This document shows positions 791 through 43,100 of a stretch of 49,487 nucleotides of DNA, piece by piece. The position numbers and the translations under genes are program-made. The stretch comes from Chloroflexota bacterium (lineage in GTDB: Bacteria > Chloroflexota > Chloroflexia > QHBQ01). A model generated the notes under the pieces. It did no database searches and was not told where the DNA came from. It saw only the letters and a list, made by a program, of their open reading frames with translations. Position 1 is the first letter of the stretch. Every line of letters starts with the position of its first letter. The stretch lies in NCBI GenBank assembly GCA_043754535.1, contig JAYUUN010000036.1, positions 1-49,487 on the forward strand, read 5' to 3'.

Positions 791-1531
791 TTAGATCGGC
801 AGCAAGCCTTCGCGCAGGTAGTCTAGCATCTCGGTGGGGCGCAGTTCTTCTGGCACGTTGGCGAAGCCAGGGAAGCCGCCCCATGCGAAGCTACGACGCA
901 GGTACCGGACAAAGAACTCTGAACGAACCATCTGACTGCTCGTAGGAGATTGGTTTATTTCGGCATCAAATCCTACAGATGGTATTATCATAGAGTCACC
1001 ACAATCAATATTACAATCGCCTGCTCTTTGGCCTATGTTGTCAGATATGTGGATGTGGAAATGAGCGACATTAAGGACCTCCTCTCCAAACCCTTGCTCT
1101 ACTACTTGCGCCTGCATACTAAGCACCTGAAGTGGCTCAGTTAGAACTAGTGGCTTTGTATCATCATCATCGCAATTGATATCGTATCCTGTGACGCGCC
1201 AGTCAGGGTGGGTACCACGCAAATCGGCCATGTCAATTTGCTCGTAAAACGCTAGAAGAGAGATGGGGAGGGTTTGTAGCATAACACTGCTATCCAACCA
1301 TTTTCTGCTACTACGTGTTATACTAGGAAGTGCAGCAAATCGGTACCCCACTTGCTCCAACCTATGTACAAGCGTCTCTATGTTGTGTGCTGAGCGGCTA
1401 GCTATTTCTCTGGCTACCGTCAGCGCATTTTGATAATAGTAGTCATCAAACACCCTGATGCCTATGGACACAAGAGTGTACCAATCTTCAAAGTACCTGT
1501 TATTGCTGTGCAGGTCAGAGTACAAGCTCAT
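791..1531 (-). CDS. Candidate immunity protein of the RHS toxin (246 aa)
   Basis: Directly downstream of the toxin gene, same low GC; GGAGAG RBS before ATG at 1531; LPISLLAFYE and FFVRYLRRSFAWGGFPG loosely recall SMI1/KNR4 (SUKH)-type proteins. Confidence 0.6.
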   Translation of the reverse strand: MSLYSDLHSNNRYFEDWYTLVSIGIRVFDDYYYQNALTVAREIASRSAHNIETLVHRLEQVGYRFAALPSITRSSRKWLDSSVMLQTLPISLLAFYEQIDMADLRGTHPDWRVTGYDINCDDDDTKPLVLTEPLQVLSMQAQVVEQGFGEEVLNVAHFHIHISDNIGQRAGDCNIDCGDSMIIPSVGFDAEINQSPTSSQMVRSEFFVRYLRRSFAWGGFPGFANVPEELRPTEMLDYLREGLLPI

Positions 1532-1658
1532 GGTTCTCTCCAAATGAACGTCACGTCTGTATGGCTTTATCAACAGATAGATTACGATTTCCTCTAAGCC
1601 TCTTAGTCGGTAAGCAGAACAAAGGAGCCTTCTTCTCACTGCGATCAGTTAGGTTTGC

Positions 1659-3893
1659 TTACTCCTCTAATGGTATGTAAGGCTCAGCTATAACCATTGG
1701 TACTCCAGGTCTGGGTTGATACATCAAAGTGGCTCCTTTCTGAAAGAATATAGAACACTGGAAATCTTGTCTACCTGCGCTGTTGTCATTGTCGCACAAG
1801 TTACGACTAACACCTATGCCCCAAAACGTTCCAAGGCCCATGTTAGCCTCCTGTGGTATAGCTCCAAAGTACTTGAGATACAAAAGAACTTCAGCGTGAA
1901 TTGACCACTCCCAACTGGGAGGCACCTCACCGAAGAACCAATCATCACCATCTGTGAACTCACCTCCAAGTGCAGCTTCTACATACCACCGTATTTTCTC
2001 TTTGTACTCTCGACAATGAATGCCATTCGCAGCCACAATGGGATGAAATGGAACGACACCTCTATAGCCATGTGGAACAATAGCAGGGCTCCCTATCGCA
2101 CTGTAGGCTATCACTAGTGGAATGCCCATTCTCATTTCCGTACATCCTCCGCTCGTAAACTCAGGGAAGTTTAGCTGAACCAGCACCTTGAGAGCAAAAG
2201 CCATGAAAGTGTACGTGTCACCTGCTAGGAGGTTACGCTCGAGCTGACCTTCATAGCTAAGGCCTTCAATATTCCTAATTGTGACTTCGCTTAGATGCAA
2301 AGCTCCTTCTACAAACAAATTACCACTTGGATCGTACCTAGTGACAGGGTTCCCTGCAACGTACCCATACCGATTAAGCTCAACCGGGTTCTCAAAGTTG
2401 TACCCAGCCTTGTCGCGGCTGAGGAACTGCCCCTGCGTGCTATTATAATACCGCGCCCGCAGATTGTAAAGTCCCGTTGCCTGGTCGTACTGCTGGCCCT
2501 TGTAGCGGTAGGCGTTCTGGGTGCTACTCACGCTGCTTGCCCGCAGGCTGCCGTATGCATCGTAGTTGTAGCGGTCGCTGGTCAGGTTGCCGCTGCTGCC
2601 AGCCAGGGTGCGGATGTTGCCCAGGCCGTCGGGCAGATAGTAGTTGGTTAGGCTGCCGCTCGTCACTGATAGCCGCTGCCCACCAGCCAGCAGGTAGCTG
2701 GTTGTGCTGCCGCCACTCTGCTCCAACGCCACCTCGCCGTAGCCCTGCTCGTCCCACAGATAGTTGGTCGTGCTGCCGTCCACCGTTTGCTGCACACGGT
2801 GGCCCTCCGCATCGTAGCCGTAGCTGACGCTGTGGCCTGGTACGCTCGCCCCCACCATGCGGTTGGCGTAGTCGTAGCTGTAGCTCGTCGTGTTGCCCCC
2901 ATCCACCGTCTGGTAGAGGTTGCCACGTGCGTCGTAGTTCTGGTAGACGTAGGTACTGTTCGGGTTGGTGATTACTGTCAACTGATCCAGCCGGTTGTAG
3001 CCGTAGCTCGTGGTGCTGCCGTTCGTGGTCACGCTCAGGCGGTTGCCAGTCGGCGCGTAGAGGTAGCTGGTGGTCGTCTGGGTAACAGCACTGCTGTCTA
3101 GCTGCGCTTCCAGGGCTAGTCGCTGCCCCGCATTGTACTGCCAGCGCGTGTACCCCGCCTGCCCCCCGACCCACTCCTGCGCCTGCGTCTTGTTGCCATT
3201 AAGGTCGAGGGTGTAGCTGTAGGCAGTTAGCGGCCCAAACGGGCTGTCCTGGTGCAGGTTGGTCAGACGGCTCAGCCCGTCGTAGCTGTAGTTGGTGGTC
3301 AGCGCGTTGGGCAGGGTTAGCTGCTGCAAGCGACCTGCCCCGTCGTAGCTGTAGCGAGCCACTCCCTGGGTGCCAGTGACCACCGCTAGCTGGTTGTCGG
3401 CGTTGTAGGCGTAGCTGGTGGGATAGTTGTTGCCTGCGTTGGTCAGGGTCATCACCGTACGCTTGCCCATCGCGTCGTAGGCGTAAGCCACGCTCTGCCC
3501 ACCGCCTGGCTGGGTAATCCTGGTCAGCCGCCCCTGCGCGTCGTAGTCATAGTGGACATTGCCCCGTCCGCCCAGTTCTTGCGGCTCTGGCAGCCCAGGC
3601 TGTCGTAGCCGAAGGTAGTCGTGGGTGGCGCACCATTTAGTGTCCACGCGCTGTCGGGCAGTATCAACCGGGTAGGTGCTTGACCTGCTTGATTGATTCG
3701 CGCCAACCCCAAAGAGCCAGCCATCATCGGCATAGATGGTGAAGGTAATATCCTGGCTACCAGTGACGATGAACGCGCCAGTGAAGGCAGCATCAAAGCT
3801 CAACATATTGTTGCTGTTGTTCAATCCCGGAATGTAGCCATTGCCCTCAGCCCTAATGAAACCAGCATAGTTGTTGTTCTGGTCAGTCACCAC
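1659..3893 (-). CDS. Truncated RHS/YD-repeat polymorphic toxin with C-terminal predicted Zn-dependent deaminase
   Basis: Many YD repeats; RHS core end YRYKGQQYDQATGLYNLRARYY...NPVTRYDPSG; ~220-aa AT-rich C-terminus with HAE and GVSRNLC-x12-C; N-terminus is a PA14-like fragment (TIYADDGW). Confidence 0.85.
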   Translation of the reverse strand: MVTDQNNNYAGFIRAEGNGYIPGLNNSNNMLSFDAAFTGAFIVTGSQDITFTIYADDGWLFGVGANQSSRSSTYPVDTARQRVDTKWCATHDYLRLRQPGLPEPQELGGRGNVHYDYDAQGRLTRITQPGGGQSVAYAYDAMGKRTVMTLTNAGNNYPTSYAYNADNQLAVVTGTQGVARYSYDGAGRLQQLTLPNALTTNYSYDGLSRLTNLHQDSPFGPLTAYSYTLDLNGNKTQAQEWVGGQAGYTRWQYNAGQRLALEAQLDSSAVTQTTTSYLYAPTGNRLSVTTNGSTTSYGYNRLDQLTVITNPNSTYVYQNYDARGNLYQTVDGGNTTSYSYDYANRMVGASVPGHSVSYGYDAEGHRVQQTVDGSTTNYLWDEQGYGEVALEQSGGSTTSYLLAGGQRLSVTSGSLTNYYLPDGLGNIRTLAGSSGNLTSDRYNYDAYGSLRASSVSSTQNAYRYKGQQYDQATGLYNLRARYYNSTQGQFLSRDKAGYNFENPVELNRYGYVAGNPVTRYDPSGNLFVEGALHLSEVTIRNIEGLSYEGQLERNLLAGDTYTFMAFALKVLVQLNFPEFTSGGCTEMRMGIPLVIAYSAIGSPAIVPHGYRGVVPFHPIVAANGIHCREYKEKIRWYVEAALGGEFTDGDDWFFGEVPPSWEWSIHAEVLLYLKYFGAIPQEANMGLGTFWGIGVSRNLCDNDNSAGRQDFQCSIFFQKGATLMYQPRPGVPMVIAEPYIPLEE

Positions 3894-11945: not shown

Positions 11946-12020
11946 TGGCTCCTCGAGTAGGATTCGAACCTACAACCTTGCGGTTAACAGCCGCCTGCTC
12001 TGCCGTTGAGCTATCGAGGA
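11946..12020 (-). tRNA. tRNA-Asn (GTT)
   Basis: TCCTCGATAGCTCAACGGCAGAGCAGGCGGCTGTTAACCGCAAGGTTGTAGGTTCGAATCCTACTCGAGGAGCCA: cloverleaf, GTT anticodon, encoded CCA. Confidence 0.97.
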
Positions 12021-12046
12021 ATGGGCCTGCGCTTACTTGCTGGCGT

Positions 12047-12076
12047 ATTATACATGATCGCTTCTACCCTTGTCAA
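12047..12076 (-). promoter_or_regulatory. Housekeeping-sigma promoter of tRNA-Asn
   Basis: TTGACA-18 bp-TATAAT on the minus strand. Confidence 0.8.
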
Positions 12077-12137
12077 ACACAAAAAGTTGCCAAAGACAGC
12101 CGAAACCGCTATACTGACCGCTAGCGGAGGTTGTGAG

Positions 12138-12935
12138 ATGTTCGACGACACTATGGGCGACGGCCCGCCGATGCCCCACAGCGCAGTGGATCAGGAGTTG
12201 CAATACGCCCGCCTGCGCGCCGCCATGCTGCGCGACCAGCTACACCCACGGGGGATAGTGGACGAGCAAGTATTGGTTGCAATGGGCCGCCTGCCGCGCC
12301 ACCGCTTCATGCCAGCCGAGGTGCGCCAGTTCGCCTACGACGACCGGGCCGTACCAATCGGCCAGGGACAGACGATCTCCCAACCCTACATCGTCGCCTA
12401 CATGACGCAACTATTGGCGGTGCAGGCGGGCGAGCGGGTGTTGGAGATCGGCACTGGCAGCGGCTATCAGGCGGCGGTGCTGGCCGAAATGGGCGCAACC
12501 GTCTTCAGCATAGAACGCTATGCCAATTTGTCGGCCAGGGTATTGCATTTGTTGGCAGAACTGGGGTACAATGTAAGCACTCAAATCCACTTGTCGGTCG
12601 GTGATGGCAGCCTCGGCTGGCCGTCTGCTGCGCCCTACGATGCGATAATCGTCACGGCGGCTGCGCCCGCCCTACCAGAAGCTCTGGCTGACCAGTTGCG
12701 CGTTGGTGGAAGGCTACTGATCCCAGTCGGCGAAGCAAAGCTGCAAACTCTCGTCTTGTTCAGGAAGGAAGGAGGAGAACTGATCGCACAAAGGATGATC
12801 CCCTGTGCCTTTGTCCCGCTTGTTGGTGAGCAGGGCTGGGCCGAGGACGCTCCTCAGCTAGTGGCATTGCGGCAACAGCTTGCTGAATATGTGCAGCAAC
12901 AAAACAACGCCGCCTCTGCTGGGAATGTGGAGTAG
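12138..12935 (+). CDS. pcm: Protein-L-isoaspartate(D-aspartate) O-methyltransferase
   Basis: GQTISQPYIVA, VLEIGTGSGYQAA, APYDAIIVTAA, FVPL; GGAGG RBS before ATG 12138. Confidence 0.93.
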   Translation: MFDDTMGDGPPMPHSAVDQELQYARLRAAMLRDQLHPRGIVDEQVLVAMGRLPRHRFMPAEVRQFAYDDRAVPIGQGQTISQPYIVAYMTQLLAVQAGERVLEIGTGSGYQAAVLAEMGATVFSIERYANLSARVLHLLAELGYNVSTQIHLSVGDGSLGWPSAAPYDAIIVTAAAPALPEALADQLRVGGRLLIPVGEAKLQTLVLFRKEGGELIAQRMIPCAFVPLVGEQGWAEDAPQLVALRQQLAEYVQQQNNAASAGNVE

Positions 12936-13224
12936 TCTTTTACTTACGTACTGTTGTTACTTTGGGTTTTTGGCATGGGTGCCTACAAGTTAGCCTTAGA
13001 GTAGTTGTTGCCAATTCTGTTTGGAGAAATCGTCGCAAATGATCTGGGTAGCCGCTGTCCGTATGAGCGCAGGAGCGCACACAGGCTGTGTGTGTGCTGC
13101 TTCTGCCGATTAGCCCAGTGGGGTGGCCCGTAAGTAGCCCTCTCTAGCCTTAACAGAATAGGTATTGCTCGCCCGCGAAAGCGACTGCTTGTTGTGCGCC
13201 TTAGCCGTTGAAAGGTCAACCGCT

Positions 13225-16200
13225 ATGGCTGAAGTGAGGAACCTGGTGCGCGAGATCGTGCGCCGTGACCTAATCCAGTGTCCAATCGAAGTTGCTTATA
13301 CTGATTACCACGACCTACTTTACTACACTCAGCAGATATGGAACCGCATCTTCAATTCGGTGGGGCGCGAGAAGACTCGCCTCAACCTCGTCTATGCCCG
13401 CCATCTGTTGGAACTGCTCGAACGCTTCCCTGATGAGTCGACCAATGATATTGAGGTCAAGTGCCTGACTGCGCTGGGCAACTTCTGCACCAGCATGGCC
13501 GAAGCTCCCTCCGAGATCACCTCGTTGGAACGGATCGACTATGCCCTATCTGCCCTCTCTTGCTTCCGTTCGCGCAACGCCCTGATGCCGCTTAATGCTA
13601 CAAGCCTGACCCTGGTACGCGTGGCCTTGCAAGTCTACCTCAGTGCGCTGGTCGATCTGCGCGCCCCCCAAGCCGAGTACGACTTCAGTGAAGTGGCCCA
13701 CGAAATGGACGAAGCTCTAGACCCATACCAGACGCTGATCCTGCAAACCGCCAGCAACCGCAATGCGATCCGCAACAACCTGCTGTTCGACTTCTTCCGC
13801 GCTCGTGTGCGTCCCCTCGTCAACCAGGGCAAGCGGGTGGAGTTTGAGAAAGCCTTTACTGCCGCTCGCGCCTACATTGATCCCACCCTCCTTAGCCCCG
13901 AACGACGAGCCGCCTGGCAGAACTTCAAGGTGGAGTCGGAGGCAGGCCAGAGTCGTGAGCAACTGGCCGAGGCCCGCGAAGTCGAGTTGCGCGCCAACCC
14001 CCTTGCTGTGGAGTCGGATGCTGCGCCAACCACTGCCAGTGCAGCAGCCAGCCCAACCACCGCCGCCACCGAGCCAGAGTTGGTGCCAGACGGTGACGAA
14101 GAATTGACCAACTCGTTTGAGGAGGAGTTGGCAACCCACCTCGGCCCGATCCGCAGCCCCCGCATCTGGCTTGAGCAGAAGATGACCCCCAACGACCCCC
14201 AGCGTGGCACCAGTATGCCCCAGGTACTCTTTCAGCTTGTGCAGGGTGGCATTGATGCTTATAAGATGGGTGACTATGAGGCGGCCCTACGCCAGTTCAA
14301 CCAGGCCGACTTGCAGAACCCCAGTGCCACCTTCCGCCACGTCCTCTTTTACAACCGCGCCGCAACCCTGCTGGCGATGAACGAGGCGGGCAAGAGCCAA
14401 CAGGCCGAGCAACTGCTGGAGCAGGCGACCAGCCTGGGCAGTCGCCTGCCTGGTCTGCGCTGGAATCTGGCGGTTGCCTATTGGCGCAATCATGGTGTAG
14501 ACAAGCGGCTGATCGACACCCTCAACGAGGTGGTAGATGCTGGGCGCAAAGCTCCACTCTGCTCTGCCGCCGCCTGCTACCTGCTTGGCAACGCACTGGG
14601 GTCGATGGAGGCACTCTTGCGGGCGAAGGCACTACCCGGTTCTGTCCCCGATCTAGACGAGGAGTTGCAGAAGTTGGCCGCCGACTACCCCAACCTCGCA
14701 CCGCAACTGAGCGCAGAGCTAGCTCGCCTGCGTGCCAACTACCCCCCCCAGCCCGCCCGCCCCGCCGAGCAGCCCTATCAGCCAGAGCAACCCTACCAGC
14801 GTACGCCCTACGGCCAGCCGCCCTACACCTTCCCCAACCAGACCCAGCAGCCCTACGGTCAGCCGCCACAGCCGCAGCAACCTGCTTACGGCCAACCACA
14901 ACCGTCACAGCCCCCCTACGGTCAGCCGCAGCCGACCCAGCCAACTTACGGCCAACCACAATCGCCGCAACCGCCTTACGCTCAGCCGCAGCCAACCCAG
15001 CCGCCCTACGGTCAAGCGCAGCAGCCGTACCAGCAACCCTACCCTCGTCCCTACAATGCCCAGGCTGGCTACAGCAGCAACCCCAATCAACCATACCCCC
15101 GCCCCTACAATGCCCAGGCTGGCTACAGCAGCAACCCCAACCAGCAACCCTACCCCCGTCCCTACAATGCTCAGGCTGGCTACAGCAGCAACCCCAACCA
15201 GCAACCCTACCCCCGTCCCTACAATGCCCCGGCTGGCTACCATCCGCCGCGTCCGCAGGGTGAATACCAGCAGCCCCCAGCAGCAAATGGGGAGCAGCGG
15301 GCCAGCTTCGCTCCCCCCAGCCGCCTTGGTGGGATCGTGGAGCAGTATGGCAAGCTGCTCGATCTGCTCGTCCCCTTTGCCGACGGCACCAGTGAGGAGG
15401 AGGAGTTGCAGCGTAGCCAGCTTGAGTTCTCCCTGGGCCTGGCTCGGTTGGAGCAGCAGACTGCTGCCCTTGAGGGAGCTACCCAGCAAGCTGTTGCCCC
15501 CTTGTTCGACAAGTGGCGGCGGCTGGGCGAGGTGCTGGCTGGACGGGTGCAGAGCGGCCTCAGCCAGAGCCTGATCCTGGTCAAGGCCGTGCAGCGGCAG
15601 ATCAGCGACGCTGCCAAACCGAGCGGGTTGGTGATCGCCCTCACCAACCAGGATGTGGTAGCCAGCGTCAGCAATATTGAACTACGCCTACCTCCCCGCC
15701 CTGACACCTACACCCTGGCGAGTGAGGTGGGCGCAGATGGTGAGGGGGCCATCCTGCGCGTTCCTATGCTGGGGCCGGGTGCCACCCGCTACCTCAAGTT
15801 CAATCTAGCCCCGCTGCGCCCTGGCCCACTAGACCTGGTGTTCGAACTAGCCTACCAGGTTAGCGGCGGTGACGACCAGCAGCCCAGCCACCACCGCAGC
15901 CACGTACTGCTGCAACCAGCATTGCAGGCTGCCCGTATTGACCCAGTATCCAGCTTCTACCTAGCGGGCGAGTCGATACCCGAAGACCGCGACGACATCT
16001 TCAAGGGGCGCGGTGAGGAGATTGCCCGTGTCAAGGCCAGCCTGGGCCTCGGCACTGGCGGTTCGCGCCACCAGAGCATGATCCCCTACCTGACTGGCAT
16101 CAGCAAGGTGGGCAAGTCCAGCCTGCTCAACAACCTGACCAACCCCCGCTTGCACCCCGACCTACACCAGAGCTTCCTGCCCGTGCGTATCAGCATGGAC

Positions 16201-17589
16201 GAGTACCAGGGCGACGAGTACAAGCTACCCTTCTTCCTCAAGGCACTGGCGGCCCGCATCGGTAAGGCGATGACCGCAGCGGGCTACAGCGCGCCCGCTA
16301 TTGAACCTTTGTGGCCGATGTTGCGCGAGGCTCCACTGATCACCTTCTTTGACGACTACCTGGGGGCAGTCAGCGACACCCTGCGCCCACGTCGCCTGCT
16401 GCTGATGTTCGATGAGTTCCGCTACCTGGCCGACAAGATACGGATGGGCGATTGGGACAGCGGCTTCCTCAGCAAGCTCCGCACCCTCTACCAGAACGGC
16501 CTGGTTGGGCTGATCTTTGCTGGGCGCGGCAACTTCAGCGAGGTTACACGCGGCCTCAACGAGCCGAGTCTGTTGGACTCGGTGCGCGACCAGCCGCTTA
16601 GCTTCCTCAACCCTGGCGCGGTGCGCGAACTGATCGAGCAGCCTAGTGGAGCGAGGGGCATCACCTTCGTGCCAGAGGCGGGCGGGCTGATCAGCCAGTT
16701 GACTGGCGGCCACCCCTTCTTCGTTCAGTCGCTTTGCCACGACGTGATCAGCGAGGTGCTGAACCGCGAGCGGCGCAAGGTGGTGATTCCAGAGGATGTC
16801 AAGCAGATCAACAAGCTCTATCTGCAATCCGACAACCTCTTTTCGCATATCTGGAACGGCGAGATGCGCGAGGTTCATCAGGAGGTGATCTTTACCCTCT
16901 TGCAGTTGCAGGAGGGCAGCAACAACTTTGTGGATCGTGGGGCGTTGGTCGCGGGCATCAGCCACTACCCACCCCGCGATGTGGCGACGGCAGTCGAGTT
17001 CCTACGCCAGCGCGAGGTGCTGGAGGAGTCTTCTAGCAGCGAACATTTCGTCCGTATCCGCATCCCTTTGCTCTATGGCTGGTTCCAGAACAAGCACACT
17101 CGTGGTCTGAGCCTGGCCCCTTCGCGAGTGGAACGCTTGCAGGACGTGCAGACGCTCACCGAGCAGGTGATCCGCCTGCGGCGCAAGTGTAACCAGTGGC
17201 GCGCTAACGTCTTCAAGGAAGATGCTTCGGATAGCAGCGTAGCCGAGGAGATGATGCATCTGGCGGCGGAGAGTTGGGCCGACTTCGAGCGGCTGGTGCA
17301 GTTGATCTACAAGTACATCGGCAACGAGGCGATCATCAACCGCGACTACCTGCGCGAGGTGCCACGCTTCGGCGAACTGGTGCGCGACTTGCAGGCAATC
17401 CGCAACGGCGTAGCCCATCGTCTGGACAATGACCGCTACCCGGACAGTGCCGACGCGGCTTACAAGGCGATAGACAAGTACCTCGGCCACCAGCCGGTAG
17501 CCGCCAGCGACTTCCTGGAGTTGCAGGAACTGGTGCTGCGCTCGGCGATCAGTGGCCTCAACGAGTTGCGCGAGGCGGTTGAACGCTAG
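13225..17589 (+). CDS. Large multidomain STAND-like ATPase: helical/TPR, P/Q/Y/N low-complexity repeats, Ig-like, AAA+ NTPase, wHTH, HEPN-like C-terminus (~1454 aa)
   Basis: FKGRGEEI, Walker A GISKVGKS (16096-16119), Walker B LLLMFDEF, TGGHPFFVQ, C-terminal RNGVAH (17401-17418); TPR-like helices around 14220-14600. Confidence 0.8.
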   Translation: MAEVRNLVREIVRRDLIQCPIEVAYTDYHDLLYYTQQIWNRIFNSVGREKTRLNLVYARHLLELLERFPDESTNDIEVKCLTALGNFCTSMAEAPSEITSLERIDYALSALSCFRSRNALMPLNATSLTLVRVALQVYLSALVDLRAPQAEYDFSEVAHEMDEALDPYQTLILQTASNRNAIRNNLLFDFFRARVRPLVNQGKRVEFEKAFTAARAYIDPTLLSPERRAAWQNFKVESEAGQSREQLAEAREVELRANPLAVESDAAPTTASAAASPTTAATEPELVPDGDEELTNSFEEELATHLGPIRSPRIWLEQKMTPNDPQRGTSMPQVLFQLVQGGIDAYKMGDYEAALRQFNQADLQNPSATFRHVLFYNRAATLLAMNEAGKSQQAEQLLEQATSLGSRLPGLRWNLAVAYWRNHGVDKRLIDTLNEVVDAGRKAPLCSAAACYLLGNALGSMEALLRAKALPGSVPDLDEELQKLAADYPNLAPQLSAELARLRANYPPQPARPAEQPYQPEQPYQRTPYGQPPYTFPNQTQQPYGQPPQPQQPAYGQPQPSQPPYGQPQPTQPTYGQPQSPQPPYAQPQPTQPPYGQAQQPYQQPYPRPYNAQAGYSSNPNQPYPRPYNAQAGYSSNPNQQPYPRPYNAQAGYSSNPNQQPYPRPYNAPAGYHPPRPQGEYQQPPAANGEQRASFAPPSRLGGIVEQYGKLLDLLVPFADGTSEEEELQRSQLEFSLGLARLEQQTAALEGATQQAVAPLFDKWRRLGEVLAGRVQSGLSQSLILVKAVQRQISDAAKPSGLVIALTNQDVVASVSNIELRLPPRPDTYTLASEVGADGEGAILRVPMLGPGATRYLKFNLAPLRPGPLDLVFELAYQVSGGDDQQPSHHRSHVLLQPALQAARIDPVSSFYLAGESIPEDRDDIFKGRGEEIARVKASLGLGTGGSRHQSMIPYLTGISKVGKSSLLNNLTNPRLHPDLHQSFLPVRISMDEYQGDEYKLPFFLKALAARIGKAMTAAGYSAPAIEPLWPMLREAPLITFFDDYLGAVSDTLRPRRLLLMFDEFRYLADKIRMGDWDSGFLSKLRTLYQNGLVGLIFAGRGNFSEVTRGLNEPSLLDSVRDQPLSFLNPGAVRELIEQPSGARGITFVPEAGGLISQLTGGHPFFVQSLCHDVISEVLNRERRKVVIPEDVKQINKLYLQSDNLFSHIWNGEMREVHQEVIFTLLQLQEGSNNFVDRGALVAGISHYPPRDVATAVEFLRQREVLEESSSSEHFVRIRIPLLYGWFQNKHTRGLSLAPSRVERLQDVQTLTEQVIRLRRKCNQWRANVFKEDASDSSVAEEMMHLAAESWADFERLVQLIYKYIGNEAIINRDYLREVPRFGELVRDLQAIRNGVAHRLDNDRYPDSADAAYKAIDKYLGHQPVAASDFLELQELVLRSAISGLNELREAVER
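14878..15021 (+). repeat. 30-bp (10-aa) coding tandem repeat, consensus QPxYGQPQPx, ~5 copies
   Basis: Units start at 14878, 14908, 14938, 14968 and 14998. Confidence 0.85.
15037..15240 (+). repeat. 54-57-bp coding tandem repeat PYPRPYNAQAGYSSNPNQ(Q), ~3.6 copies
   Basis: Near-identical units start at 15037, 15091, 15148 and 15205. Confidence 0.92.
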
Positions 17590-17618
17590 CGTGGTCGCTG
17601 ATGAACGAGCGTAAGTGG

Positions 17619-17649
17619 GAGAGGTAGGCAGGTTGCCTACCTCTCTTTT
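17619..17649 (+). terminator. Intrinsic terminator after the STAND-like gene
   Basis: GAGAGGTAGGCA-ggt-TGCCTACCTCTC followed by TTTT. Confidence 0.85.
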
Positions 17650-34594: not shown

Positions 34595-34926
34595 ATGCTG
34601 ACGCGCATCGAGATAGATGGCTTCAAGAGCTTCCAGGACTTCAGCATGGACTTCGGCTCGTTTACAGTCATCCTGGGCCAAAACGCTTCCGGCAAATCGA
34701 ATCTGTTTGACGCAATCAGACTGCTCTCTCGCTTGGCTGCTGAGAACTCGGTTGCCGCTGCCTTTAGCGGTGTACGTGGATCTATCGGGAAGGTGCCACC
34801 GCTGCTAGCTTTCTAGCCGAGCTAGGCCGTGAGGTGCCAATCAAGAAGTTGCGCCAAGTACCATCGTTCCAACGCTTTGAAGCTGATTTGCGAAAAGCCC
34901 TGGTTGCAATGGGCATTCTGGAATAA
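34595..34926 (+). pseudogene. Remnant of an ABC/AAA_21-type ATPase (N-terminus) joined to the C-terminus of a DUF4276-like partner gene
   Basis: MLTRIEIDGFKSF...GQNASGKSN stops after 73 aa; another frame reads [41 protein letters not shown] ending at 34926. Confidence 0.7.
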
Positions 34927-34930
34927 AAAC

Positions 34931-37618
34931 ATGAACATCCTTGCTTTCGAGACATCCTGCGACGAAACTTCTGCGGCGATCATCCGCGACGGGCGGCGCA
35001 TCCTCAGCAATGTAGTCGCTTCGCAGATCGACCTACACACCCTCTGGGGTGGGGTGGTGCCAGAACTTGCCAGCCGCCAGCACATCCTCTACGTGATACC
35101 CACCCTGGAGGAGACTCTGCGCCAGGCAGGGCTAACCTGGGCCGAGGTTGACGCTATCGCTGTCACCAACGGGCCGGGGCTGGCGGGCGCGCTGCTAGTT
35201 GGGGTGAACGTGGCTAAGGGGCTGGCCTTCGCCCTCGGCAAGCCGCTGCTGCCTGTTAACCATCTGGCGGGTCACATCTATGCCAACTGGCTGATCCCCA
35301 CCGCCAACGCTGCCCCCCAGCCGCTCGTCGTTGCTGCGCCAGAGCCGCAACCTGCTCCCGCCCCAACCGCCAGCCTGCTGGATACTGGCAGCCGCCGTCG
35401 CGTCCTTGGTGCCACTGAACTGCCCCCCTTCGAGCGGCAGGGTACACCGATTGCCGTGCCTGAACTGCGGGTGCAGCCGCCAATTGTTGAGGCAAAGAAG
35501 GAGAAGGAAACAAAGGAGCCTGGGGAGCCAAAGTTCCCCCTCGTCTGCCTGGTCGTCTCTGGCGGGCATACCGAGTTGGTGCTGATGCGCGGGCATGGCC
35601 GCTACGAACTACTCGGCAAGACGATTGACGATGCAGCGGGCGAAGCCTTCGACAAGGTAGCGCGCCTCCTGGGTCTTGGCTATCCTGGCGGCCCTGCGAT
35701 CCAGCAGTTGGTAGAGGAGACCCACGCCGACCCACGCGCCATTGATCTCCCACGGGCCTGGTTGCGTGGCAGCTTCGACTTCAGCTTCAGCGGCCTCAAG
35801 ACTGCTGTGCTACGCAAGGTCGAGGAGTATGGCGGCCTGCCTATCCGTCCTAAGATTCGCCCCTTCGCCGAGGTAGAGGCCGAGCAGCAGCAGCGTGACC
35901 GCCTGGCTCGTGAAGCCGAGGCTGCCCGCCCGCCGATCATCGTCGCGGGCAAGGCGAAGGAAGTACAAGCTGACTCGACCGCCGCCCCAACCAACCCGCC
36001 AGCCACGCTCCAGGCCGCAGTACCAGCGCAAGAAGACAGCAGTACACAAGAGCCTACACCCGCTGCGCCCGATCAGACAGCCATGCGGCCAGCGGAGCAG
36101 TTGCGCCCAGCCGCTCTGCGTCCACTGCGCACCGCCAATGCGGGCAGCAGCGTGCGCCCGCGTCGCCCCGACATCGCGGCTGGCCTGCGCGCCCAACTGC
36201 TGGGTGATGAAGCCCCCGTACGGGCAGCCCGCCCTGCTGGTTCTGTACCAGACGAAGATGAGGATGATGGAGAGGAGCAGCCGACTACGCCACGAAGCAA
36301 GCGGATAGCCGCCAGTGGCCCCGCTCTCTTGCGACCACGCCTGCCACTGGTGCAGCAGTCTGGCGATGAGGACGATGAGGACGATGAGGATGAGGACGAT
36401 GAGCAAGGGCAGCAGCTAACCCGACCCGCCAGCCCACAACCGTTGAGCGGTGCCGCGGGGCTACAACGCCGCCCCCTACCCTTGCGCCCCCTCGCACCGA
36501 CTGACGACGAGGACGACGGCGATGAAGATGAAGATGAGGACGGCCTCCCGCCCTTCACCAATCCTGCCCGTTCCACAGTCCCCGCTGGCCCCGGCCTGCA
36601 ACGCCGCCCCTTGCCAGGAATGCAGAGCAGCCAACCAACTACACCTGCCAACCCATCTGCGCCCCTACCAGGCGACAGCAGCGCGCAGCGCAACAGCAGC
36701 CAACCAGTCAGCCCCCAGAGAAGTGGGGCTGAGGAGCAGTCCGCTGGATTGATCCGACGCAGTAGCACCAGTGGCACGGGCAACAACCCGACCACTAGCC
36801 GCCCACCCCAACACAGCGGCATGAGCGAACCACCACAGCCCAGCCGTCCGCAACAGCAGCCACCAGCCCAGCCCACACGTGGCAATCAGCCACCCACTGC
36901 TGGCAACCGCCCAAATACCCCCTCGCAGCCACAACGTCCCGCTAGCGGCAGCCAGCCACCCCAGCGTTCGACCAGCAGCAGCAACCAGCCTGTGCGGCCC
37001 AGCAACCAACCCGTGCGCCCTGCCCCCCCCCCACCGAAGCCGCTGGCCGACCGCCCAATCTCGGCGGTGCCGAAAGGCAACCGCGCCGCCGATGTGCAAG
37101 ATGAGGACGCGGAGTTGGAGGAGCCAACCCGCCACGCCCTCGGCTCGGCTGCCGACGACGAGCCAGAGGATGACAACCGCCCCCGCCCGCACCGCAGCCT
37201 CGGCGCAGAGGAGAACGCAGGCCGCCCGCTGGTCAGCAGCAGGCTGGCTAAGGACAAGCCGCCGCTTGACCCAGAGGACTTTCCGCTGGCGGAGATCGCC
37301 GCTGCCTTCCAGTTGGCAGTGATCGAGGTGCTGGTCGAGAAGACTGCCGCCGCTGCCGAACAATATGGTGCAAAGTGCGTGATCCTTGGTGGCGGCGTGG
37401 CAGCCAGCAAGCTGCTGCGTACCATGCTGGCCGACCGCCTCAGCAGCCCATTGCTCTATCCGCCCCCAGCTCTCTGCACCGACAATGCAGCGATGATCGG
37501 TGCAGCGGCCTTCTACCGCTACTATCATCCGCAGGCTCCCGACCGCGACAAGGCCGACTCCTCCGACTGGGCGATGGACATTGAGCCGAACGCCCACTAT
37601 CTGGGCAACGAAGAATGA
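34931..37618 (+). CDS. tsaD: tRNA N6-threonylcarbamoyltransferase TsaD with two large low-complexity insertions (~895 aa)
   Basis: [68 protein letters not shown]. Confidence 0.92.
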
Positions 37619-41921: not shown

Positions 41922-43100
41922 TTGCTGGATATTATCCTGCCCGAAATCGAACAGATCGTCACCGATGTGGATCATGCTCGCTTCAAGATCGAGCCGCTGG
42001 AGCCAGGTTGGGGTTACACGCTGGGCAATGCCCTGCGCCGCATCCTGACCAACTCACTGCCGGGTGCAGCCGTGACCGCCGTCAAGCTCTCCGCCGAACC
42101 GGGCGCAGATGGGCGGCTACCGCAGATCGAAGAAGATATCATTGACGTGATCCTCAACACCAAGCAGCTACGTCTGCGCTACCGTGGCGACCAGCCCGTG
42201 CGTGTTCACCTGAAGGTGGACGGCAAGAAGGGGTCGCTGACCGCCGCCAACCTGCAACTGCCAGAGGGGGTCGAGGTGATGAACCCCGACAGCGAACTAG
42301 TGCATAGCACTGGCAGCAAGGGGGGGTTGGAGATCGAGATGCTGGTACAGCAGGGCTTTGGCTACAGCCCAGCAGAGCAGCACGCCGAATACACGCCCTT
42401 CGATATGACCCCGATTGATGCGCTCTACTCGCCAATCCCCCGCCTCAACTACGTCGTCGAACACACCCGCCTCGGCCAGCGCACCGACTACGACCGCCTA
42501 CTACTGGATATCTGGACTGATGGTTCGATTGAACCGGTCGAGGCTCTGCGTCAGGCTGCCCAAATCCTCACCCGCCATGGGCAGATCGTCGCCAGCTTCA
42601 GCGGCACGATTGTCGAGGACGAGGTAGAGGAGGTGGAGGAGGTGCCGGTCACTTCGCCTAGCATCAACATCCCGATTGAGCAACTTAACCTTACCAGCCG
42701 CACCTTCAACGCCCTCAAGCGGGCTTACATAGACACGGTGGGCCAGGTGCTAACCATGACCGACAACGAGTTGCTCGGCCTGCGGAACTTCGGCCAGAAG
42801 GCGTTGGACGAGCTGCGCGAGAAGCTGGTTGAGCGGGGGTTGGCTGGCGAAGCAGCGGCTAACCCCCTGCGCGGTAGTCTCACCCCCATGGGCCACGAGC
42901 AGGGTGGTGACGATGATAGCGGCCAGGACGCGCCAGAGCAGACTACCAGGAGCAGCAAGAAGACGAGCAAGCAGGGCAGTCGCCTGACCAGCCTCAGCGA
43001 ACTCGCTACTCTTGCACCTGATTTGGACAGTGAAGACCAGGATGAATCAGGAGAGGACGAGGCAGACAAGGACGAAGTAGACCAGGGCGACGCAGAGTAG
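41922..43100 (+). CDS. rpoA: RNA polymerase alpha subunit, stand-alone and divergent copy with acidic C-terminal tail
   Basis: EPLEPGWGYTLGNALRRIL, IDALYSP, IWTDGSI, alphaCTD IEQLNLTSRTFNALKRA...RNFGQKAL. Confidence 0.92.
   Translation: MLDIILPEIEQIVTDVDHARFKIEPLEPGWGYTLGNALRRILTNSLPGAAVTAVKLSAEPGADGRLPQIEEDIIDVILNTKQLRLRYRGDQPVRVHLKVDGKKGSLTAANLQLPEGVEVMNPDSELVHSTGSKGGLEIEMLVQQGFGYSPAEQHAEYTPFDMTPIDALYSPIPRLNYVVEHTRLGQRTDYDRLLLDIWTDGSIEPVEALRQAAQILTRHGQIVASFSGTIVEDEVEEVEEVPVTSPSINIPIEQLNLTSRTFNALKRAYIDTVGQVLTMTDNELLGLRNFGQKALDELREKLVERGLAGEAAANPLRGSLTPMGHEQGGDDDSGQDAPEQTTRSSKKTSKQGSRLTSLSELATLAPDLDSEDQDESGEDEADKDEVDQGDAE

Follow-up and report, generated by a model that had tools for sequence, protein, structure and literature searches.

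A large survey of prokaryotic defence STANDs clustered sensors taken from the region C-terminal to the nucleoside triphosphatase (NTPase; PMC13581612). HEPN is found among the effectors of NACHT proteins, some of which carry their effector C-terminally, after the repeats (PMC13581612; bioRxiv 10.1101/2022.07.19.500537), and two-gene operons encode an nSTAND2 module followed by a winged helix, TPRs and HEPN (PMC8195603). Bacterial HEPN-STAND fusions often place HEPN at the N-terminus and include S1/OB domains, with STAND-TPR-S1 fusions of Swt1-like HEPN listed in Table 1 of PMC3710099; ATPase-nuclease fusions have general precedent (PMC10853773, PMC12839542). Here we analysed a 49,487-nucleotide stretch of DNA from a Chloroflexota bacterium (the window; contig JAYUUN010000036.1 of assembly GCA_043754535.1), in which an open reading frame (ORF) at positions 13225–17589 of the forward strand encodes the 1454-residue STAND protein P0001. 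Its predicted sensor precedes the ATPase, and its C-terminal tail is a probable HEPN RNase. The frame is open throughout, and the ATG at 13225 agrees with the N-termini of three orthologues; a longer start, the TTG at 13165, is a mechanical ORF limit only. An earlier annotation made from the DNA letters alone (the sequence-only reading) had described a gene of ~1454 residues with the motifs discussed below, and both the frame and the motif positions hold.

As judged from its predicted structure, the ATPase belongs to the STAND NTPases; both Walker motifs (A and B) and the GxP motif are intact, a winged helix follows, and nucleotide-dependent oligomerisation is predicted. Walker A (GISKVGKS) occupies residues 958–965 and Walker B (LLLMFDEF) residues 1058–1065, with TGGHPF at residue 1160; invariant among the orthologues are the Walker A G-K-S including the lysine, the Walker B D-E, and G1162-H-P1164. 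An AlphaFold2 model of residues 695–1454, built from 10 sequences (predicted local distance difference test score, pLDDT, 73.7), was compared with 48,161 chains and best matched PabY2304 (2qen; Z 23.8, root mean square deviation (rmsd) 3.9, 332 residues aligned); further matches were the wheat G10 resistosome (Z 20.9), SSO1545 (2fna; Z 20.8, rank 3) and WRR4A (Z 18.2). Curated STAND profiles score below their cut-offs (nSTAND1, 24.1 bits against 27.1; AAA_22, 21.9 against 27). The fold matches to 2qen and 2fna and the invariant Walker and GxP motifs bear out the STAND assignment made in the sequence-only reading. PabY2304 and SSO1545, which we take to belong to the MNS clade of STAND ATPases, are the best structural matches and share the same NTPase-helical-winged-helix module but, unlike P0001, are stand-alone ATPases of ~350 residues without sensor or tail.

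The half of the protein that precedes this module is less readily named. The N-terminal domain, residues 1–240, has no Pfam match, and its best matches in the ESM Atlas are clusters without a name (score 0.90). TPR matches in Pfam stay below cut-off over residues ~338–427 (TPR_16, E 3e-5; TPR_11, E 9e-5, for the isolated piece). The ensuing linker, residues 506–700, holds 55 P, 42 Q and 25 Y among 195 residues and repeats PYPRPYNA four times; the β-sandwich at residues ~784–896 is called Ig-like (immunoglobulin-like) solely from the strand pattern of the model. The domain order given by the sequence-only reading is recovered in the motif positions, the weak Pfam TPRs and the hairpin, β-sandwich, NTPase, winged helix and helical tail of the model. 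The whole protein finds nothing meaningful in NCBIfam and no PADLOC family (2023 library), an outcome that had been named beforehand as favouring novelty.

To place the protein among its relatives, a profile of the core (Ig-STAND-winged-helix, 6 rows) was run on 301 genomes of the class, 401 genomes of the phylum and a protein database. Relatives are the best-scoring loci, at most 30 per search; 72 remained once 4 duplicate rows, the orthologues and downstream partner genes had been removed. With tail-less defined as an estimated tail of at most 55 residues, 63 of these 72 non-orthologous proteins end after the winged helix, three continue into NYN, four into PRTase-CE and two into TPR or WD40-like repeats. 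All assignments to NYN or PRTase-CE exceed Pfam cut-offs; one PRTase-CE case comes from the unpublished genome G007, the three others do not. The N-terminal modules of the tail-less relatives vary, comprising GAF, membrane segments, propellers, N6 methylase and RelA/SpoT. Judging by these sequences, the norm for the clade is a C-terminal NTPase, with outputs placed after the winged helix of either the protein itself or a partner. The inverted layout proposed by the sequence-only reading, sensor first and effector last, is supported and gains further from the presence of NYN and PRTase-CE in the same slot but is less unusual than suggested, most relatives being tail-less.

Outputs on partners occur in two-STAND operons, where a large, tail-less sensor-Ig-STAND gene is followed by a STAND-winged-helix gene (L059, L060, L066, L083, L050). 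The partner STAND ends in a Swt1-like HEPN in L059, L060 and L066 (above cut-off in two of the three) and, by eye, in L083; that of L050 ends in a Ser/Thr kinase. Other fusions were seen along the way: a RelA/SpoT-like protein is fused C-terminally to the same STAND-winged-helix module in L009 (G008), L006 (G012, unpublished) and P0009, with a second STAND-like gene following the L006 and L009 genes, and an N6 DNA methylase is fused to the same STAND module in P0021, P0024, P0025 and the plasmid hit H3.

The families of P0001 and of the NYN-tailed proteins have the Ig-STAND core in common (profile comparison, 99%), and no homology is detectable between their N-terminal halves (probabilities 0.1–0.4%); sensor and output therefore both differ between the two. 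The NYN-tailed group is sister to the P0001 family (Shimodaira-Hasegawa-like approximate likelihood ratio test, SH-aLRT, 97 with 61 rows and 82 with 44 selected rows), and in the 44-row tree the three enzyme-tailed groups cluster (support 88) and the PRTase-CE proteins form one clade (support 99); this support is only moderate because both trees come from quick searches and have long branches, and because NYN and PRTase rows had been used as seeds of the profile with which the members were gathered, which counts against the reading preferred below. The NYN family is patchy and rearranged. Eleven of 61 genomes of another family contain a match, five of them near full length, and among these five two are seeds and one is split by stops; three others possess the N-terminal and NYN parts with no match in the STAND range, and three possess the NYN end only, one in the unpublished genome G687. 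Walker B looks altered in two members, and in the neighbourhoods examined the NYN-tailed genes stand alone amid housekeeping genes.

Against this backdrop we turned to the tail of P0001 itself. RNGVAH starts at residue 1393, and every orthologue tail retains R, N and H across a one-residue insertion, the motif being R-x4-H (RNGVAH) in one genus and R-x5-H (RNGIVAH) in the other; the conservation on which the sequence-only reading had made its HEPN proposal depend is thus present. HEPN motifs are defined as Rx4-6H, typically with a polar residue after R (PMC3710099), and the spacing and the polar residue fit this definition in all orthologue tails. RNGVAH alone is modest evidence because such motifs recur by chance in ORF C-termini: among 1638 long six-frame ORFs of the same genome, the last 160 residues contain a bare Rx4H in 287, R[NDH]x3-5H in 83 (5%) and RNx3H in 8. 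The sole PADLOC match of the tail is CARF_HEPN (E 0.005), and the better of two plasmid matches is a DUF4145 protein (E 0.06), DUF4145 being counted as a HEPN family (PMC3710099). The DUF4145 alignment spans the motif helix, W..ER...LR..P....L.RDL..IRN..AH (hhalign 77%, a pairwise value for a match chosen after the search). E1349 and R1356 are invariant, and the spacing of the upstream acidic residue differs from Ex3[KR].

A separate model of the tail (pLDDT 73.5, from 5 sequences) places RNGVAH at the end of the helix at 92–109 of that model. HEPN proteins account for three of the top 50 rows of its fold search: 5yep_B, presumably the toxin chain, SO_3166 (Z 8.3, rmsd 3.4, 116 aligned), 3jrt_A (8.0, 5.5, 144) and 7ae2_A (7.8, 4.2, 122). 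SO_3166 has been described as HEPN (PMC4621449), and 3jrt_A is listed as HEPN in Table 1 of PMC3710099. Foldseek with the tail gave no match at E ≤ 0.001 in PDB or BFVD, PDB sequence searches gave nothing useful, and the ESM Atlas gave a best score of 0.82 without a name and a weak RnlA-family lead at 0.76. The predicted tail homodimer scored 0.00, by a method that also fails to recover 10 of 30 solved homodimers, so this score counts neither for nor against a dimer. No relatives of the tail outside the family were found in the 401 phylum genomes or among 1298 protein candidates, which gave only the four family proteins; two borderline matches in the phylum genomes were rejected, one being SecA and the other an internal stretch of an unrelated ATPase.

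Taken together, a working model for P0001 emerges. At rest, by analogy with other STANDs, the protein would be an ADP-bound monomer with its tails held apart. A trigger, probably a protein, would bind the N-terminal/TPR region, which is tethered by the ~200-residue flexible P/Q/Y linker; nucleotide exchange and ring formation would then join the tails, such that two R1393-N-x3-H1398 motifs could build a shared HEPN site. RNA would be cut, and the cell would stop growing or die, likely under infection or similar attack. We consider a HEPN fold likely for the tail and somewhat favour an active RNase; RNA cutting is likely because the slot is taken, in the nearest relatives, by an NYN RNase or by a different enzyme predicted to act in defence. 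Most likely, the ancestry of the gene lies in a clade of conflict systems whose C-terminal output can be swapped, and its inheritance within the family has been vertical. Our preferred reading, to which we assign a probability of roughly 45%, is that P0001 is a trigger-gated STAND RNase with a counter-invader role, of conflict-system origin and fixed in one lineage. What is observed is the order of the domains, the STAND fold, the conserved motifs, the exchange in the slot and the distribution; trigger, oligomer, RNase activity and outcome are extrapolated here from what is known of STAND and HEPN proteins.

Several observations on the tail, and on the history of the gene, weigh against this reading. 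Neither Pfam nor NCBIfam contains a HEPN model that matches the tail, HEPN_Swt1 included; the three HEPN rows of the fold search (Z 7.8–8.3) tie with or fall below generic helical bundles, which reach Z 9.4 and fill the top rows; CARF_HEPN matches two of five tails only, and those two are 98% identical; and E1355, aligned with the acidic residue of DUF4145, is H in the other genus. Conservation of the motif is weak by itself because 91 of 169 tail columns are invariant. The tail might then be a HEPN that has lost its activity, or a helical domain for interaction or oligomerisation, in a protein that serves as a signalling scaffold, as the tail-less Chloroflexota STANDs that dominate its relatives would; the chance frequency of R[NDH]x3-5H also favours this reading. 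We regard it as unlikely: HEPN families come up over the motif helix in each of two separate, weak sequence searches, R-N and H persist despite the insertion between them, and the sister group carries an RNase at the same position. The HEPN proposal of the sequence-only reading is accordingly likely, on the motif kept among orthologues and the weak HEPN matches, with HEPN and generic bundles tied in the fold search. It is very improbable that P0001 is the effector half of a two-STAND, nSTAND2-like system with its partner ATPase encoded elsewhere. Operons with an HEPN-tailed second gene do exist among the relatives and in print (PMC8195603), but the Walker motifs of P0001 are intact, a search of its own genome with the NTPase returned only P0001, a profile search otherwise gave only Clp-like and TPR-tailed ATPases with weak scores, and the tail compares with the partners' Swt1-like HEPN at 0.9%.

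The same ATPase-gated HEPN RNase could instead be domesticated, as a switch for RNA processing or dormancy in stress or development that works as IRE1 or RNase L does; we hold this as possible though doubtful, including the idea that it may sense damaged proteins, given its conserved neighbour pcm. In its favour, all five genomes sampled from its Chloroflexia family, spanning two genera, have one copy of the gene, and pcm lies upstream in G001 and G004 and adjoins the gene in both genera (the remaining two contigs stop short of the 5′ part). Its GC content is 62.1% against 61.4% for the genome, with host-like GC at third codon positions (GC3) too, and a Pfam scan of 16 further genes of the window revealed none that looks like a defence gene, the surroundings being of a housekeeping kind. 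Between the genera, identity is 63–65% for the N-terminal domain, 66–67% for the TPR region, 65–67% for the NTPase, 57–59% for the tail and ~32% for the linker, and the genome-wide median is 60% (best-hit pairs from a sample of G004 against G000; 78 of 88 hits retained after a coverage filter). Nothing points to an arms race, because the predicted sensor, at 63–67%, compares with that median, and the divergence of sensor and tail is average. On these sequence data the gene behaves like an ordinary, vertically inherited one, and the caution in the sequence-only reading that a non-defence role was equally possible proved justified by the five genomes and the average divergence. A horizontal island was rejected on host-like GC and synteny. 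Five genomes in two genera may, however, amount to a shallow fixation, the genes downstream differ among genomes, and adjacency to pcm may be plain synteny. We prefer the counter-invader role because the slot in the relatives holds conflict effectors, swapped between NYN and PRTase-CE, and because the sister NYN family is patchy, as conflict systems are; the preference is narrow, since fixation and average divergence speak for the opposite.

The immediate neighbours of the STAND gene are pcm and a major facilitator superfamily (MFS) transporter (Pfam scan). Downstream, a 14-bp hairpin at 17617–17647 runs into UUUU (−31.4 kcal/mol, z −5.75; none of 200 shuffles as good), which agrees with the terminator that had been proposed for the gene; a simple terminator scanner has no entry for it. 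For the accompanying claim that the gene is monocistronic no support emerged: pcm lies on the same strand 289 bp upstream, and a promoter scan of the intergenic region found no sigma-70-like promoter between them.

Three further loci in the window drew attention. The sole tsaD match of the assembly (34829–37618, forward strand) is a 929-residue ORF in which the TsaD domain lies in three stretches; the inserts are long, P/Q/D/E/S-rich and of low complexity, the largest ~480 residues, which is unusual for an essential tRNA-modifying enzyme. At 41922–43100 (forward strand), upstream of a convergent ftsK, the RNA polymerase alpha subunit is encoded a second time, by a divergent gene that shares 41% identity with the one on contig C9 and has an acidic C-terminal extension. 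On the reverse strand, 791–3893 holds an RHS-repeat ORF (744 residues) and then a low-GC (47.5%) gene of 282 residues, a pair that resembles a polymorphic toxin or cassette and its immunity gene.

Table 1. Positions of features of the STAND gene and its surroundings in the window, and of related loci in other genomes (locus:positions)
Feature	Position	Strand	Basis or remark
pcm (L-isoaspartate O-methyltransferase)	12006..12935	+	upstream neighbour, kept in both genera; Pfam
N-terminal domain, residues 1-240, conserved, no known family; predicted sensor part	13225..13944	+	orthologue identity 63-79%
TPR-like region, residues ~301-505, predicted sensor	14125..14739	+	weak TPR Pfam matches; orthologue identity 66-82%
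P/Q/Y-rich low-complexity linker, residues ~506-700	14740..15324	+	composition conserved, sequence not
Helical hairpin, residues ~699-776	15319..15552	+	secondary structure of model
Ig-like beta-sandwich, residues ~784-896, common to NYN-tailed relatives	15574..15912	+	model; core comparison
STAND NTPase and helical domain	15958..16869	+	Pfam sub-cutoff, fold match, motifs
Walker A	16096-16119	+	motif position
Walker B	16396-16419	+	motif position
GxP	16702-16719	+	motif position
Winged-helix domain, residues ~1216-1292	16870..17100	+	model; 2qen aligned over model residues 218-595
Helical tail, 162 residues (1293-1454), probable HEPN RNase	17101..17586	+	
RNGVAH in tail	17401-17418	+	
Terminator-like hairpin with U-run	17617..17649	+	shuffle-tested folding energy
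Helical/TPR-like, Ig-like, STAND, winged-helix, NYN proteins, large solitary	L041:7858-12837 (G011); L095:1397-4921 (G223); L096:55-4632 (G281)		
Single-gene Ig-like, STAND, winged-helix, PRTase-CE proteins	L071 (G491); L098:3999-7181 (G363); L099:7932-10871 (G350); L042:8607-12038 (G007, unpublished)		

Since the survey of defence STANDs clustered sensors from the part that follows the NTPase (PMC13581612), its sensor catalogue would miss a clade in which the sensor comes first and the effector last. Such a clade is defined by P0001 together with its relatives that carry NYN or PRTase-CE, among which the effector has been swapped naturally. Should the tail be an RNase, the protein shows how a STAND ring can activate an effector directly after the winged helix; should the gene turn out to have no part in defence, it is a clear example of a module of immune type that became fixed as a core regulator. 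A bolder and quite improbable proposal would make P0001 the first member of an undescribed Chloroflexota clade of back-to-front proteins resembling nucleotide-binding leucine-rich repeat (NLR) receptors, ordered sensor, Ig-like domain, STAND and winged helix, with exchangeable HEPN-like, NYN or PRTase-CE output, domesticated in this one family as a core ATPase-gated RNase. Such a protein would be a bacterial counterpart of IRE1 or RNase L controlling dormancy, differentiation or programmed death, and the prion-like P/Q/Y linker could concentrate it.

Among described systems, the nSTAND2 two-gene systems also combine an MNS-like STAND and winged helix with TPRs and a C-terminal HEPN as predicted effector. 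Their HEPN-bearing STAND is inactive, ~600 residues long, has its TPRs between winged helix and HEPN, and needs a partner gene (PMC8195603); P0001 is a single 1454-residue gene with intact Walker motifs, N-terminal TPRs, a P/Q/Y linker and an Ig-like domain, and its probable HEPN follows straight after the winged helix. Membership of nSTAND2 was rejected on the intact Walker motifs, the lack of an nSTAND2 match in Pfam, and neighbours that are pcm and the MFS transporter with no partner STAND. Avs and NACHT proteins share the STAND switch, the TPR-like sensor and an enzymatic effector, but their order is usually effector-NTPase-sensor (PMC13581612; bioRxiv 10.1101/2022.07.19.500537), the reverse of that in P0001; Avs membership was rejected on this reversed order and on the lack of a PADLOC model for the whole protein, in a library older than the 2026 Avs families. 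Swt1-like HEPN fusions likewise unite HEPN, STAND and TPR in one chain; a Swt1-type HEPN was rejected for the tail, which has no HEPN_Swt1 match and compares with the Swt1-like tails of its relatives as noted above.

In the literature consulted, neither the single-gene architecture nor the exchange of NYN, PRTase-CE and HEPN on one core was found described, although listing in some supplements is possible. The suggestion of an undescribed system thus stands for the architecture, for which no paper was found, and not for a C-terminal HEPN on an MNS-like STAND, which is already published (PMC8195603); the novelty is a single-gene, sensor-first STAND with a probable HEPN output. In overall plan, P0001 also resembles the AP-GTPase (ROC-COR) conflict proteins, which carry an N-terminal repeat sensor, an NTPase switch and an exchangeable C-terminal effector, but which differ in using a GTPase and leucine-rich repeats, in evolving rapidly and in occurring as multiple paralogues (PMC8195603).

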